Source: Thermoanaerobaculia bacterium
GTDB taxonomy: Bacteria > Acidobacteriota > Thermoanaerobaculia > Multivoradales > J023
Assembly: GCA_036397835.1 (NCBI GenBank)
Contig: DASWIG010000349.1
Span: 962-64,961, forward strand
DNA length: 64,000 bases
Reading direction: 5' to 3'
The translations under genes and the position numbers were made by a program. Numbering within the stretch: position 1 is the first letter of the stretch; every line of letters starts with the position of its first letter. This document shows, in pieces, positions 16,563 to 54,799 of the stretch. The notes beneath the pieces are model-generated. The model was not told where the DNA came from. It was given only the letters and a program-made list of their open reading frames with translations, and did no database searches.

Positions 16563-19001
16563 CTATTCCTCCCGGATGATCTTCATCGGGTCGGTGCGGC
16601 TCGCCCGGAGGGTGGGGGGCAGGACTGCCAGGACGGCGACGCCGAGGAGGCCCAATAGCACGAAAGCGAAGGTCGCGGGATCGGACGCGCTGACCCCGAA
16701 GAGGAAGCCGCCCAGCAGAGCCCTGAGGGCCAGGAGGATGGCGATGCCGACCCCCATCCCCACGAGGGCCGGTCTCAGGCTGCGGACCATCATCAGCCGC
16801 AAGATCCGCGGACCGGTCGCACCCATGGCCATGCGGACGGCGACCTCGTGCCGTTGCTCGCGGACGCTGTTGCTCACCACTCCCCACAGATCGACCAGCG
16901 CCAGGATCAGGGCAACGCCGGCGAACAGGGTGAGGAGCAGGGTGCTGAAGCGCTCCTTGGAGATTTGCACTCGGAGGACCTCGTAGAGAGTCCTGGCGGC
17001 GGCGATGGGTTGCTCCGGGTCGATCCGGTGCAAGAGCTCCCGAAAAACGGGGAGCACCGAGAGCGCCGGGACGCCGGTGCGAATCAAGACGTTGACCTTG
17101 CGTTGGGGTACCTGCTGCAGCGGCAGGTAGAAGGTCGGATGAGGAGTCTTCCCCTCCGACGAGAGGGAATCGTCCACCACCCCGACGATGGTGAAGGAGG
17201 AGGGCCGCTCCGGTCCCCACACCCACTGGGCCGCCGGGGTGAAGAGGTGAGACCCGAGAGGATTTTGCTCCCCGAAATGCTTGCGCACCAGGGCCTGGTT
17301 GACGACGACCACCGCGGGCGCAGCGACGTGATCGCCGTGGTTGAAATCCCGTCCCGCGAGCACTTCCATGTCCAGGGATTCGAAGTAGCCGACGCTGACG
17401 GTGCGAAACAGCCCGCCCATTCTCTCTCCCAGCTTCGGCTCGACGCCTTCCAGTCTGAAGCCTGCCAACCAGTTGGCCTCCAGGGGATGATCGTAGGCCG
17501 CGACCGCGGCCGCCACTCCGGGAATGGCCCGGACCCCGTCCAGGAGCTGCTGGTAGAAATCGTTGAGCTGGGGCATTGCCGAGTAACTCTGTTCGGTGTG
17601 CGACAGCTCGACGATCAGCAATTCCCCACGCTCCAATCCCAGGTCCACCGCCTGCAAGCGTTTAAAGTTCTGGGCCAGGAGGGTGGAGCCGATCAAGAGC
17701 ACCACCACCAACATCATTTCGACGGCCACCAGGGCGCGATGGACACGGGCTCCCCGGCGGCCGCCGGCGACGGACCTGCCGGCGCGCAAAGCGCTCTCGA
17801 GGTCACGCCAGCGGATCTGACCGGCCGGGATCAACGAGGATATCAAGACGATCAACAGCGAGAGCAGAATCGTCACGCCCACGACCCGGTAGTCCATGGA
17901 CAACTGGTCCAGCCGCGGGAGCTCGCGGGGGGCCAGATGGGGAATCAGGCGCAGTCCCCAGATGCAGAGCAACAAACCCAGGAGGTTGCCGATCACGACG
18001 AGGACGGCACTCTCCACCAGGAACATCCTGACCACGTCGGCCTTCCCGGCACCGAAGGCGGAACGGATCGCCAGCTCCCTGTTCCGGGACATGACGCGCA
18101 CCAGCAAGAGGCTGACGACGTTGGCGCAGGCGACGATCACCAGCAAGGCCACGGCCACGGCCAACAAGTACAAGGGCCGACGGATCTTTCCCACCGCCTC
18201 CTCCGTCAGTGGGATCACCGCCGCCTTCTTCTTTTCGTTGGTCGCGGGGAAGTCCTGGGCCAGTTGGCCGGCGATCCTGTCCATCTCGATCCGCGCGCTT
18301 TCCAGGGTCTCTCCCGGGCCGAGCCGCGCCAGGACCCCGTGGATGCCGGACTGATCCGGCGGACCCGGGGGTCTGGGAATCCAGTAGAACGGCCGTTCCA
18401 AGTTGAAGGTCCAGACGCCGGAGGGCTCGGCGAGCTCCGGCAAGAGAAGCCGGGGCATGACCCCGACGACGGTGTAGGGTTGCTCGTCGAGGAGGAGAAC
18501 CTTTCCGATCGCCTCGCGATCAGCTTGCAGATGCGTGGACCACATGGGGTAATTGACCACGATGGTCCGCTCGGCCGCAGGCGTGAAGTCCTCCACCTGG
18601 AACGTTCGGCCGTAAAAGGCCGGGACCCCCAGCAAAGGAAAGAAATCTTCGGTCACCAGGGTGCCGACCACCTGTTCGGGCCGCTCCAGGGAGGTCAGAG
18701 CACCGGTGGAGAAGCTCACCATGGCCATCTTGTCGAAGACCTGGCTGCGCTCGTGCCACTGTCCGAAATTGAAGCCGGTGGTTCGCTGCTTGTCCCAGCC
18801 TTCCGAAAGTACCGAGTCCCAAATCGCCACCAGGCGTTCCGGGCTCGCGAGGTCCAGGGGCTTGAGCAGGATGGTGTCGATCAGGCTGAGGATCACGGCA
18901 GCGGCACCGATGGCGATGGCCAGGATGAGGATGACCAGCGAGCTGACTCGCCAATCGCGGCGCAGGGAACGAAGTGCCTGAGTGAGGTTTGAGCCCGTCA
19001 T
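16563..19001 (-). CDS. FtsX/MacB-like ABC transporter permease (two FtsX domains). No fused or adjacent ATPase.
   Basis: About 812 aa from ATG 19001 (MTGSNLTQALRSLRRDWRVSSLVILIL...). That ATG overlaps the TGA of the upstream megasynthase (ATGA). N-terminal TM, large periplasmic domain, FtsX-type 4-TM bundles. Confidence 0.75.
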   Translation of the reverse strand: MTGSNLTQALRSLRRDWRVSSLVILILAIAIGAAAVILSLIDTILLKPLDLASPERLVAIWDSVLSEGWDKQRTTGFNFGQWHERSQVFDKMAMVSFSTGALTSLERPEQVVGTLVTEDFFPLLGVPAFYGRTFQVEDFTPAAERTIVVNYPMWSTHLQADREAIGKVLLLDEQPYTVVGVMPRLLLPELAEPSGVWTFNLERPFYWIPRPPGPPDQSGIHGVLARLGPGETLESARIEMDRIAGQLAQDFPATNEKKKAAVIPLTEEAVGKIRRPLYLLAVAVALLVIVACANVVSLLLVRVMSRNRELAIRSAFGAGKADVVRMFLVESAVLVVIGNLLGLLLCIWGLRLIPHLAPRELPRLDQLSMDYRVVGVTILLSLLIVLISSLIPAGQIRWRDLESALRAGRSVAGGRRGARVHRALVAVEMMLVVVLLIGSTLLAQNFKRLQAVDLGLERGELLIVELSHTEQSYSAMPQLNDFYQQLLDGVRAIPGVAAAVAAYDHPLEANWLAGFRLEGVEPKLGERMGGLFRTVSVGYFESLDMEVLAGRDFNHGDHVAAPAVVVVNQALVRKHFGEQNPLGSHLFTPAAQWVWGPERPSSFTIVGVVDDSLSSEGKTPHPTFYLPLQQVPQRKVNVLIRTGVPALSVLPVFRELLHRIDPEQPIAAARTLYEVLRVQISKERFSTLLLTLFAGVALILALVDLWGVVSNSVREQRHEVAVRMAMGATGPRILRLMMVRSLRPALVGMGVGIAILLALRALLGGFLFGVSASDPATFAFVLLGLLGVAVLAVLPPTLRASRTDPMKIIREE

Positions 19002-54500: not shown

Positions 54501-54799
54501 TCCTGCTCCTCGGTGGGCAGCTCGCTCCAATCCTGCGCGGTGAACGGCACCTGCACCGCCGGGGCCACCCACTGCCGGGCCTCGGCGCCGTGCCAGTCAA
54601 AGGCCGTGCGCAGCGCCGGGTGACGCTGGACCATCCAGTCCAGGCAGTCCCGCAGCAGAGGAGCGTCGACTGCCTCGGGAAGGGCGAAGACGAGCTGCCA
54701 GACGTCGACGCCGGAGCCCGGGCGGTTCAGGCTCTGAACGAGCATTCCCTCCTGGATCGGGGACAGCGGATAGCTCTCTTGCGTCATTCGCAACCTCAC
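51590..54799 (-). CDS. NRPS initiation module Cs-A-T (about 1065 aa). N-terminal starter-type condensation domain. A domain with non-canonical core motifs, no A10 lysine. PCP and C-terminal docking-like tail.
   Basis: C: HHAVVDGRS. A: A2 LKAGGACVPVD; A3 YTSGPSGRRGIEI (vs YTSGSTGxPKG); A8 GRRDRQVLVKGHRV; A10 region LPRTAGGALDLRAL (vs NGKVDR in all other A domains of the cluster). PCP: FFDHGGHSLAL. Likely true start ATG at 54787 (MTQESYPLSPIQEGM), 12 nt after the TAA of the upstream gene; the ORF-track start is GTG at 54799. Confidence 0.85.
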   Translation of the reverse strand: MRLRMTQESYPLSPIQEGMLVQSLNRPGSGVDVWQLVFALPEAVDAPLLRDCLDWMVQRHPALRTAFDWHGAEARQWVAPAVQVPFTAQDWSELPTEEQEIRLEGYLREDRRRGFVLGRPPLIRAALFHGGASGSRILITVHHAVVDGRSVPIATTDLFGRYAAIAAGSAFEPRQSLPFRDYVEHVAAQDASRDEAFWRAAFAGFESPTPAADGLESSAADPSRGHREMDLLLSPETGAALAARCQREGLSLNTVTQAAWGLLLARYSGRHDVAFGAVKSCRASLPGGDTIVGPMVNTLAVRAIAEPSKPLSVYLEELRSFWTALRPHEHTALSKVQEWSDIASGQPLFDSLVQFERYPLSASLPWLGPRYRSMTVQIRRQPGYPLLVHAYEKPGLRLKMIYDTGRFSDCAVRQRLEHLGRLLDAMARQPDARLGDLEPLSPAQRWQSVGEWSGVAVAAPAARTVPEVIAAAARRHPGREAVRWEGESLTYGDLDERSSRLAGHLRRLGLAAEDRVGIFLERTPRLVVAMLAVLKAGGACVPVDLGESTERPLEALDASGARWLVSEAPLHEQLPTLSGCRVVRADREPFEPAAPLPPPRGEQLAWVLYTSGPSGRRGIEIPHRALATWLAAAQELFDDEDLGGCLASTPVSLDVSIFELFAPLARGGRVLLAGDVLRPSRLAAAADVRLVTATPSAMAELLRLEALPPALRTVSFAYDRPSEALLGKLFASSTLERVCIVYGRTEATAFSRVETRRRDGTATVRPLAGRQVYLLDDALKPVPVGATGELLLGGEGLARAVMGDARETAASFAPDPFGSRPGGRLHRTGDLARYRHDGILEPLGRRDRQVLVKGHRVDPGEVEAVLRSHPQVDDVEVAVREDDPGHKRLVAYVVCADAVSPAQLTGFLRQRLPPFLCPEAVLPVGLLPRTAGGALDLRALPRPESRRSDVSGEYVAPRNRLERTIAEVWKDVLRVDKLGVDDNFFDHGGHSLALVQAHEELAKKLGRDDLLQVDLFTYPTIGSLARYLAEAETEAEAEQAELDGMQERATAQRQARQRRRPVVLSEDVR

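Follow-up and report, generated by a model that had tools for sequence, protein, structure and literature searches.

A hybrid NRPS-PKS operon with a predicted PEARL/SnaE-type ligase and a pseudo-adenylation module at its front end in an uncultured Thermoanaerobaculia bacterium

The window analysed here is a stretch of DNA of 64,000 nucleotides with a G+C content of about 70%, which originates from a metagenome-assembled genome (MAG) of an uncultured soil bacterium of the Thermoanaerobaculia (Acidobacteriota). An exact-sequence look-up identified the proteins of the operon region as HEX9733569-74. A preliminary description of this DNA had recognised a five-gene hybrid assembly line of the nonribosomal peptide synthetase (NRPS) and polyketide synthase (PKS) types at 18998-54799. 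All five open reading frames (ORFs) are indeed located at these limits, co-oriented on the minus strand; however, the operon is larger and comprises seven genes (16563-57355, minus strand), and the two flanking genes had been missed. The gene at the 5' end encodes a protein with only the Lant_dehydr_N domain, and the gene at the 3' end encodes an ADOP permease. Judging by its domains and motifs, the operon probably represents an orphan hybrid NRPS-PKS line with an amide ligase of the PEARL/SnaE type and an ADOP exporter, and biosynthesis would follow a collinear path. The genes, with the limits of g1–g5 taken from the ORF list, are as follows.

54800-57355, minus strand: PEARL/SnaE-like ligase of 851 aa, lantibiotic-dehydratase N-terminal (glutamylation) fold alone
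51590-54799, minus strand: g1 ORF, called start at 54787
49503-51593, minus strand: g2 ORF
43438-49506, minus strand: g3 ORF
35834-43441, minus strand: g4 ORF
18998-35809, minus strand: g5 ORF
16563-19025, minus strand: ADOP-family duplicated FtsX/MacB-like permease, overlapping the end of g5

The ligase gene is located 12 nt upstream of g1. The g1/g2, g2/g3, and g3/g4 pairs overlap by 4 nt, the gap between g4 and g5 is 24 nt, and the G+C content at third codon positions (GC3) of the synthetase frames is 0.87-0.92. Identical g1 and g2 proteins were found in JGI assemblies 3300033417, 3300037515, and 3300037518, in ENA assemblies ERZ27256803 and ERZ27256989, and in one NCBI MAG. Since identical proteins recur in independent assemblies, neither the gene limits nor the remnant state of g2 can be considered assembly artefacts. 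The g2 remnant occurs as 696-aa and 699-aa forms in different assemblies of the population. At the g4/g5 junction (35809-35836), g4 and g5 share a reading frame, interrupted by a single TGA within the linker between a condensation (C) and an adenylation (A) domain; g4 ends in the acidic tail FTDDLDDF. The same split between C and A followed by a thiolation (T) domain is kept in Corallococcus silvisoli (L110; metagenomic loci are referred to below by L-numbers) and in L108, where the g4 homologue is 64% identical. The front end of L108 is different and consists of C-A-T repeated three times, without a module of ketosynthase (KS) and inactive acyltransferase (AT0) domains. As the split is kept at 64% identity, the g4/g5 boundary is genuine, and variation between the two lines is found at the front end.

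The ligase matches profile positions 3-648 of 649 of PF04738 (E=6.5e-36). Its AlphaFold model (pLDDT 90.3) is closest to the glutamylation domain of TbtB (6EC7, E=4e-27, TMq 0.68), followed by MibB, GodF, MadB, and NisB. A PDB search with the single ligase sequence gave no match, and a profile was required at the sequence level. PEARLs and SnaE differ from dehydratases in two regions: region 1 reads QRxxxK(N)(D/E)T in the former and RxxxR.TPFG in the latter, while in region 2 the former have E-x-R and the dehydratases have the acidic residue alone (Fig S12, PMC11212132). In the ligase, these regions are YLQRYGAKNDTIGFF and YTSELRIVAVD. When its motifs were compared with those of SnaE, TglB, BhaB, and AmmB and of the dehydratases NisB, MibB, SpaB, EpiB, and TbtB, the PEARL-specific Arg of E-x-R was found in the ligase and was absent from all five dehydratases. 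Of the TglB phosphorylation set Glu801/Arg803/Glu542, the motif regions compared show the two residues of E-x-R, Glu and Arg, within SELR. The R196, K200, E831, and R833 residues are invariant among 32 homologues, and the tRNA-binding motif QRxxxK(N)(D/E)T was detected in 88/98 ORFs of the family. No elimination domain (PF14028) was found in the ligase, nor does any operon gene supply one. A plausible small ORF for a carrier or precursor peptide was likewise absent from the operon and from the upstream gap of about 300 bp (57356-57668), so the features of a class I lanthipeptide dehydratase, i.e. an elimination domain and a precursor peptide, are lacking. The window contains no tRNA genes.

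A dehydratase that glutamylates Ser residues to produce dehydroalanine would have the same LanB glutamylation fold, and the assembly line has two Ser-specific A domains that could provide its substrates. However, besides the lack of PF14028, the protein carries the Arg specific to PEARLs and SnaE, and its region 1 is QRxxxKNDT rather than RxxxR.TPFG; this role is very improbable. The PEARL-type regions and the missing elimination domain indicate that the protein is, by its motifs, an amide ligase of the PEARL/SnaE type. Residues ~285-355 form a weak PqqD/RRE-like stretch (profile matches 5SXY and 5VRD, E=0.01-0.2), which may be a peptide- or carrier-binding element.

The gene next to the ligase, g1, has the following domains.

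53516-54784, minus strand: C domain, DCL-like, with an intact HHAVVDG motif
51920-53425, minus strand: pseudo-A domain, key lysines lost
51695-51919, minus strand: T domain (GGHSL), followed by a basic C-terminal tail

The C domains were typed by BLAST and a neighbour-joining (NJ) tree against the labelled C-domain alignment from the supplementary information of PMC11212132. The best references for the g1 C domain are ApnB and McyB of the DCL type (33% identity, 226-234 bits), compared with 117 bits for the best LCL reference. The domain falls into the DCL clade of the tree, and there is no starter C domain (Cs) among its seven best BLAST references. It does not group with ureido-forming (Cu) references either and reads VHHAVVDG, not EHHxxHDG; this active-site signature, together with the tree, ruled out a ureido/chain-reversal model for g1. 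The preliminary description had labelled this domain as Cs and deduced N-acylation of the product, following lipopeptide logic. That label was not borne out, and since the domain groups with DCL, the N-acylation reading is positional only.

The A domain of g1 has lost the P-loop Lys of A3 (TSGPSGR-RG, without Pro-Lys), the hinge Lys of A8 (GRRDRQVLVKG), and Lys517 of A10, which is replaced by Ala (PRTAGGALD); its A5 motif is VYGRTE. Given the loss of these lysines, it should not adenylate. A role of the pseudo-A domain as a binding site for the 3' adenosine of tRNA, or in running the thiolation half-reaction, was considered and rejected, as the loss of the A8 Lys argues against canonical catalysis. 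The tail of g1, QRQARQRRRP, is similar to the tail of g3 that precedes g4, a gene starting with KS, and this similarity suggests that g3 has become the direct docking partner of g1.

Classical lipo-initiation, in which g1 would N-acylate the amino acid of its own A domain and the line would make an N-acyl heptapeptide/triketide, agrees with the location of a C domain at the start of the first synthetase gene, with its intact HHxxxDG motif, and with the fact that some DCL-like C domains take non-aminoacyl donors, as g5 C3 does after its PKS module. It is nevertheless improbable. Apart from the position of the C domain outside the Cs clade, the A domain in question is without the three lysines named above (P-loop, A8, and Lys517), the L021 homologue additionally lacks Asp235, and the operon contains no gene for a fatty acyl-AMP ligase (FAAL) or for an acyl-ACP (ACP, acyl carrier protein) or acyl-CoA ligase.

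A search for ligase homologues revealed 676 sequences at E<1e-5, with named sources in Pyrinomonadaceae, Blastocatellia, other Acidobacteriota, and Herpetosiphonaceae. All 6/6 looked-up homologues have an NRPS/PKS context. The context counts are based on 59 metagenomic loci whose flanks reach 3 kb or more; NRPS/PKS domains are present in 49/59 (~83%) and the ADOP permease in 20/59. A frequent layout includes a synthetase terminated by a thioesterase (TE), an ADOP permease, and then one to four LanB-like genes, which fits a C-terminal extension after release. Up to four tandem LanB-like paralogues per cluster, often around the ADOP permease gene, occur in L080, L078, L039, and L059; they recall the multiple PEARLs of the ammosamide pathway. 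In L024 (7948-12637), genes of the diaminopropionate pair, SbnA-like (PALP) and SbnB-like (OCD/mu-crystallin), are located directly upstream of the LanB-like gene of an NRPS cluster, and a TauD gene is embedded beside the LanB-like gene.

These layouts bear on the question of where the ligase acts. It may add one tRNA-derived amino acid to a free carboxylate, in the simplest case to the C-terminus released by TE, while g1 is either skipped or has its T domain charged in trans by some other A domain. Besides the TE-terminated loci described above, such tailoring is favoured by the presence of the PEARL motifs, one for tRNA binding and one for phosphorylation of a carboxylate with ATP, and threopeptin is a precedent for action on a small NRPS product (PMC11212132). 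We consider this plausible, although short of an even chance, because it leaves three features unexplained: the constant presence of a C-pseudoA-T gene at the operon 5' end beside the closest relatives, the duplication of this gene pair as a unit, and the stand-alone T domains and A-less C-T modules beside the enzyme.

The three LanB-like proteins nearest to the ligase (49-55% identity) are each encoded immediately before a g1-like gene (45% identity), and in L021/L030 the pair of ligase and g1-like genes occurs twice in tandem before a KS gene. The g1 homologues of the L021 type are more degenerate, with an A3 motif DRAADGR--G, loss of Asp235, and an A10 motif DGEID. Conservation amounts to 50% for the C domain, 44% for the A core, 53% for the A sub-domain, and 56% for the T domain; being as conserved as C and T, the pseudo-A domain is maintained. 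Approximately 80 A10 motifs were readable in these loci. The Lys is lost in g1, in the L021-type copies, in the terminal module of L082/L084, and in the A-T-TE of L065, and such A domains are always encoded by the synthetase gene nearest to the LanB-like gene (adjacent or with the ADOP gene between them), while the other readable A domains (~70) keep GK. The L102 locus has a badly degenerate A fragment with an A10 that cannot be aligned and is outside this tally. P0277, a homologue of g1 whose A domain is intact, stands without a LanB-like neighbour. Among GTDB species representatives, the relatives of g1 show 26-35% identity (35% maximum), and no LanB-like neighbour was found beside them. A broad search with g1 indicated that the dead-A family is small and consists of the window and the L021 lineage; most of the "no-Lys" flags in this search are artefacts from interrupted A domains.

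Some related loci lack an A domain where one is expected. The L104 locus (1-7735) contains A-T-C, a LanB-like gene, a 120-aa stand-alone T domain, a 152-aa protein of no assigned role, and an alpha/beta hydrolase; judged by gene order, this resembles a terminal module in which the tRNA-dependent enzyme occupies the A-domain position. In L023, a gene ending in A-T is followed by a LanBN gene, a stand-alone T domain, and a KS gene, and C-T modules without an A domain are present in L044, L059, and L062. A single ORF of L089 (6629-12559) contains C-A-T fused to a LanB-like domain, with the A10 Lys kept and an ambiguous residue in A3. This fusion suggests that the substrates of the enzyme family are tethered to a carrier. 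The ureido signature EHHxxHDG was found in 1/41 C domains across related loci, and not beside the enzyme.

These observations allow another explanation, namely that the ligase and the C-pseudoA-T of g1 work as one unit for tRNA-dependent initiation. Using aminoacyl-tRNA, the ligase would supply or build the starter (aminoacyl or acyl-aminoacyl) on the T domain of g1 and so make up for the lost adenylation, and the pseudo-A domain would remain as a scaffold or docking surface. The pair is kept in three lineages and duplicated as a pair, the loss of the A10 Lys is confined to modules near LanB-like genes, the pseudo-A domain is conserved to the same degree as C and T, the basic tail of g1 implies that its T domain hands the substrate to the g3 KS, in L104, L023, L044, L059, and L062 the enzyme stands where a module is short of its A domain, and in L089 it is fused to C-A-T. 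However, acylation of a phosphopantetheine thiol is not known for any PEARL or LanB enzyme, and the conserved E-x-R points to carboxylate phosphorylation, which is superfluous for plain aminoacyl transfer to T. Furthermore, many members of the family follow complete TE-terminated lines, and an alternative is that a neighbouring A domain loads the T domain in trans, as generally known for yersiniabactin HMWP2. Such initiation is only slightly less plausible than tailoring and likewise short of an even chance, and so is its corollary that the ligase and C-pseudoA-T constitute a new type of NRPS module, in which a tRNA-dependent enzyme of the LanB fold replaces the adenylation domain.

The remaining part of the line was analysed with Pfam, motif scans, and hidden Markov models (HMMs) built for this analysis. 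The domain matches have E-values of 1e-25 to 1e-228, which exclude chance. The domain order given earlier for all five genes was reproduced exactly: g1 is C-A-T; g2 is a C fragment and a truncated A; g3 is KS-AT0-T-C-A-T; g4 is KS-AT-T-Cy-A-T-C, where Cy is a heterocyclization domain; and g5 is A-T-C-A-T-C-A-T-KS-AT-KR-T-C-A-T-TE, where KR is a ketoreductase. A-domain codes were extracted by alignment to GrsA-PheA (GrsA), and the C types below come from the labelled C-domain set. The domains of g3, g4, and g5 are listed below.

48181-49494, minus strand: g3 KS (Pfam/HMM)
47098-47913, minus strand: g3 AT0, GHGLG
46675-46896, minus strand: g3 T
45373-46620, minus strand: g3 C, LCL type
43741-45282, minus strand: g3 A, Ser code DVWHISLIDK
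43519-43740, minus strand: g3 second T
42119-43426, minus strand: g4 KS
40877-41851, minus strand: g4 AT, canonical, with GQGSQ, GHSLG, and HAFHS
40427-40648, minus strand: g4 T
39089-40381, minus strand: g4 Cy, DLLLGDALS, grouping with Cy references
37472-39013, minus strand: g4 A, Cys code DLYNLSLIWK
37244-37471, minus strand: g4 second T
35927-37207, minus strand: g4 C-terminal C, LCL type
34187-35803, minus strand: g5 A1, code DARHLSLMVK without assignment, followed by T
Between the first T and A2, minus strand: g5 C1, LCL type
31007-32551, minus strand: g5 A2, Ser code DVWHISLVDK, followed by T
Before A3, minus strand: g5 C2, LCL type, HHVLADA
27830-29362, minus strand: g5 A3, Gly code DILQLGLIWK, followed by T
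26270-27586, minus strand: g5 KS
24950-26008, minus strand: g5 AT, with GVGEQ, GYSLG, and HAFHS
23555-24109, minus strand: g5 KR, followed by T
21710-22984, minus strand: g5 C3, DCL-like, after the PKS module
20012-21619, minus strand: g5 A4, Cys-like code DLYDFSLVWK with an SLGGATE variant of A5, followed by T
19001-19744, minus strand: g5 TE, with GWSLG and a GTH motif

The line thus has C/A/T and KS/AT/ACP modules, catalytic motifs, and a terminal release domain, as is characteristic of modular hybrid NRPS/type I PKS systems. Not every module is complete: the g1 A domain is without its lysines, the g3 AT is lesioned, and g2 is truncated. The three KS modules, the single KR, the single Cy with an A domain of Cys code, and the terminal TE of the preliminary description were all seen, and, in agreement with it, Pfam detected no dehydratase (DH), enoylreductase (ER), methyltransferase (MT), oxidase (Ox), or epimerization (E) domains in the synthetase genes. 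Relatives of g4 at ~53% identity carry a nitroreductase-type Ox domain; since there is none here, thiazoline is expected over thiazole. The catalytic Cys-His-His is kept in 3/3 KS domains. The earlier label of the g3 AT as AT0 is confirmed by GHGLG, in which Ser is replaced by Gly, and by the absence of HMM positions 158-221 (~64 positions), including the HAFH region; by these features the domain is considered dead. The HAFH motif reported for both full-length AT domains is present as HAFHS in g4 and g5. An AT type with HAFHS, with GYS(L/I)GE instead of GHSxG, and without GQGSQ was also found in L023, L073, and L083, which are unrelated hybrid clusters of the Acidobacteriota type, and because of this recurrence the GYSLG AT of g5 can be regarded as a subtype, not a lesion. 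The g5 KR contains the NADPH motif and Lys-Ser-Tyr, while both the LDD motif and the A-type Trp are missing.

The Ser, Cys, Gly, and Cys-like substrate calls are made from canonical codes. The preliminary description had predicted a heptapeptide. Seven A-T pairs are indeed present; however, the A domain of g1 is a pseudo-A, and six A domains look competent by their codes and motifs (Ser, Cys, one unassigned, Ser, Gly, and Cys-like).

The g2 gene, rightly described earlier as a remnant, is a shortened paralogue of the C-A portion of g3 (87.7% identical at the nucleotide level across 1827 nt) and carries two deletions. Its C domain has an internal deletion of ~200 residues and has lost HHxxxDG. 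Its A domain, with a Ser code, stops just after motif A8, ten residues before the g3 start, so that A9, A10, and the T domain are missing. The dN/dS of g2 versus g3 is 0.33, a value that fits neutral and constrained evolution of g2 alike.

At the other end of the operon, the permease scores 709 bits against TIGR03434 (cut-off 622) and contains MacB_PCD and FtsX twice each according to Pfam; it is a probable exporter. Several other genes of the window can be mentioned. An acyl-CoA carboxylase beta subunit (carboxyltransferase) is encoded at 57669-59231 (plus strand), divergent from the operon; judging by its family, it could supply extender units and may equally belong to primary metabolism. 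The ArgRS gene (59279-61102, minus strand) lies two genes from the ligase, and the CysRS gene (3458-4933, plus strand) lies 12 kb past the other end of the operon; both may be housekeeping copies. A glutamine-dependent asparagine synthase of the AsnB type, directly followed by a TauD-family dioxygenase, is encoded at 9566-12482 (plus strand), 4 kb from the permease end. Pairs of the AsnB and TauD types can make modified amino acids; these genes were considered as cluster members, and no tie to the cluster could be made. The stretch 2-1312 contains a YhgA-like transposase fragment, at the window edge, and an AcpS-type (not Sfp-type) phosphopantetheinyl transferase (PPTase), at 680-1312.

Taken as a collinear path, the line would operate as follows. 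A starter of undefined origin would be carried by the g1 T domain, and the basic tail of g1 would dock to the g3 KS, bypassing the g2 remnant. Malonyl extension at g3 would give a beta-keto unit; as the g3 AT is dead, the extender must be loaded in trans. Addition of Ser by g3 and a second malonyl extension by g4, giving another beta-keto unit, would be followed by the incorporation of Cys and its cyclization to thiazoline. The residue of the unassigned code would then be added by a split module, with its C domain at the end of g4 and its A-T at the beginning of g5. On g5, Ser and Gly would be added, a third malonyl extension would be reduced to a beta-hydroxy unit, and a Cys-like residue would be incorporated before TE releases the chain. 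In total, the released chain would consist of a starter, three malonyl units, and six amino acids. The ligase would form one further amide bond in the manner of SnaE and PEARLs, with ATP-dependent phosphorylation of a carboxylate and aminoacyl-tRNA as the amine donor. By this analogy, it most likely contributes one residue beyond the collinear prediction. Two places for this bond compete: comparisons between loci speak for a unit with the g1 pseudo-A, and PEARL chemistry speaks for a free carboxylate, for example the C-terminal one that TE sets free.

Several points weigh against this interpretation. The codes DARHLSLMVK and DLYDFSLVWK were compared with canonical codes alone. No Sfp-type PPTase was found within the window, and together with the pseudo-A domain, the g2 remnant, and the dead g3 AT, this could mean reduced or no function. 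No carboxylate is predicted at the g1 end, because EHHxxHDG is absent there (VHHAVVDG), although PEARL chemistry needs one. A scripted tally found A-less features in 17/33 LanB-like loci and in 5/16 control loci, and some of the "ends in C" cases in it are ordinary split modules; the enrichment is modest, suggestive rather than decisive, and this weakness also tells against initiation by the ligase and g1 as one unit. Finally, the malonyl specificity read from HAFH can be misleading, since such a prediction failed for SnaB, from the sole characterised relative (PMC11212132).

The extreme form of this objection is that the cluster is decaying and makes no product or a shunt product alone, for which the pseudo-A domain, the g2 remnant with its two deletions, the dead g3 AT, and the g4/g5 split can be cited. 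However, all ORFs are intact, their translation is coupled, and their GC3 is that of coding sequence; the pseudo-A state is conserved and of long standing, the split is kept at 64% identity, the GYSLG AT recurs in other clusters, and the population carries the cluster in several samples. Decay is therefore unlikely, and the collinear line with its ligase and exporter remains the preferred explanation.

In agreement with the preliminary description, which recognised no characterised cluster with this domain order, no matching one was found in the homology and literature searches. The best non-self match of g4 is a metagenomic protein with 64% identity, and the matches from cultured myxobacteria (~50%) have a similar, not identical, layout. 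All named matches are MAG proteins. The literature search yielded the sna paper and the work on PEARLs, and nothing on this ligase family or on products of Thermoanaerobaculia. Judged by these searches, the cluster is an ordinary, previously uncharacterised orphan hybrid biosynthetic gene cluster; such a finding in an uncultured acidobacterium is routine, and its value lies in the front end. The pairing of the ligase with a dead-A carrier module provides a concrete hypothesis for the joining of tRNA-dependent and thiotemplate peptide synthesis. If it is true, substrates of the ribosomal type (an amino acid or a PEARL-made acyl-amino acid) would feed a thiotemplate line, and the stand-alone T domains, A-less C-T modules, and dead terminal A domains near the enzyme in many Acidobacteriota clusters would be explained. 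The pair is small (54.8-57.4 kb and g1), which makes an in vitro study possible without the whole 36-kb line.

Among known systems, yersiniabactin HMWP1/HMWP2 is a thiazoline-forming hybrid NRPS-PKS with Cy-A(Cys)-T beside KS-AT-T modules. As far as is generally known, it resembles the line described here in this arrangement and in having carrier domains that lack a functional A domain in their own module and depend on another catalyst for loading; it differs in order, length, and residues, in its salicylate starter, which has no counterpart here, and in that another A domain fills in there. The Cs domains of lipo-initiation (SrfAA C1, RzmA, GlbF, and CdaPS1 C1) share with the g1 C domain the N-terminal position in the first module, but form a separate NJ clade. 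The dehydratases NisB, MibB, and TbtB are among the best structural matches to the ligase, which is distinguished from them by the PEARL-type Arg and region 1 and by having no elimination domain. With the PEARLs TglB, BhaB, and AmmB, the ligase shares the fold, the QRxxxK tRNA-binding motif, E-x-R, and the weak PqqD/RRE-like stretch; however, the substrate of PEARLs is a ribosomal carrier peptide, on whose C-terminus they act, whereas here the enzyme is encoded in an NRPS-PKS operon without a carrier-peptide ORF.

The closest parallel is the sna cluster of Stackebrandtia nassauensis, which produces threopeptin. Both are NRPS-PKS clusters with a stand-alone enzyme containing only PF04738 and without a precursor peptide gene (Yu & van der Donk, ACS Cent Sci 2024, PMC11212132). 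The SnaE regions, YAQRYFTKNDTIGFF and YTSELRFVAVN, are nearly identical to those of the window ligase, YLQRYGAKNDTIGFF and YTSELRIVAVD. SnaE attaches Thr to a carboxylate that a ureido-forming C domain with EHHxxHDG has generated (PMC11212132), and the sna synthetase has the A-T-Curea-A-T order, whereas the line described here lacks a loading A-T, the C domain beside its ligase is of the DCL-like type and reads VHHAVVDG, and the neighbouring A domain is a dead one. The hosts also differ, Acidobacteriota here and Actinobacteria in the case of sna, and the assembly line described here is far larger. As the ureido signature is absent, a logic other than that of SnaE applies. About two thousand NRPS/PKS clusters with "lantibiotic dehydratase" genes have been reported (PMC11212132). 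Among them, one has been explained, and the explanation through the carboxylate of a ureido-forming C domain fails both here and in the large Acidobacteriota family of the ligase. By its sequence features, the front end composed of a PEARL-type ligase and a pseudo-A module is thus different from the sole NRPS-PEARL system described to date.

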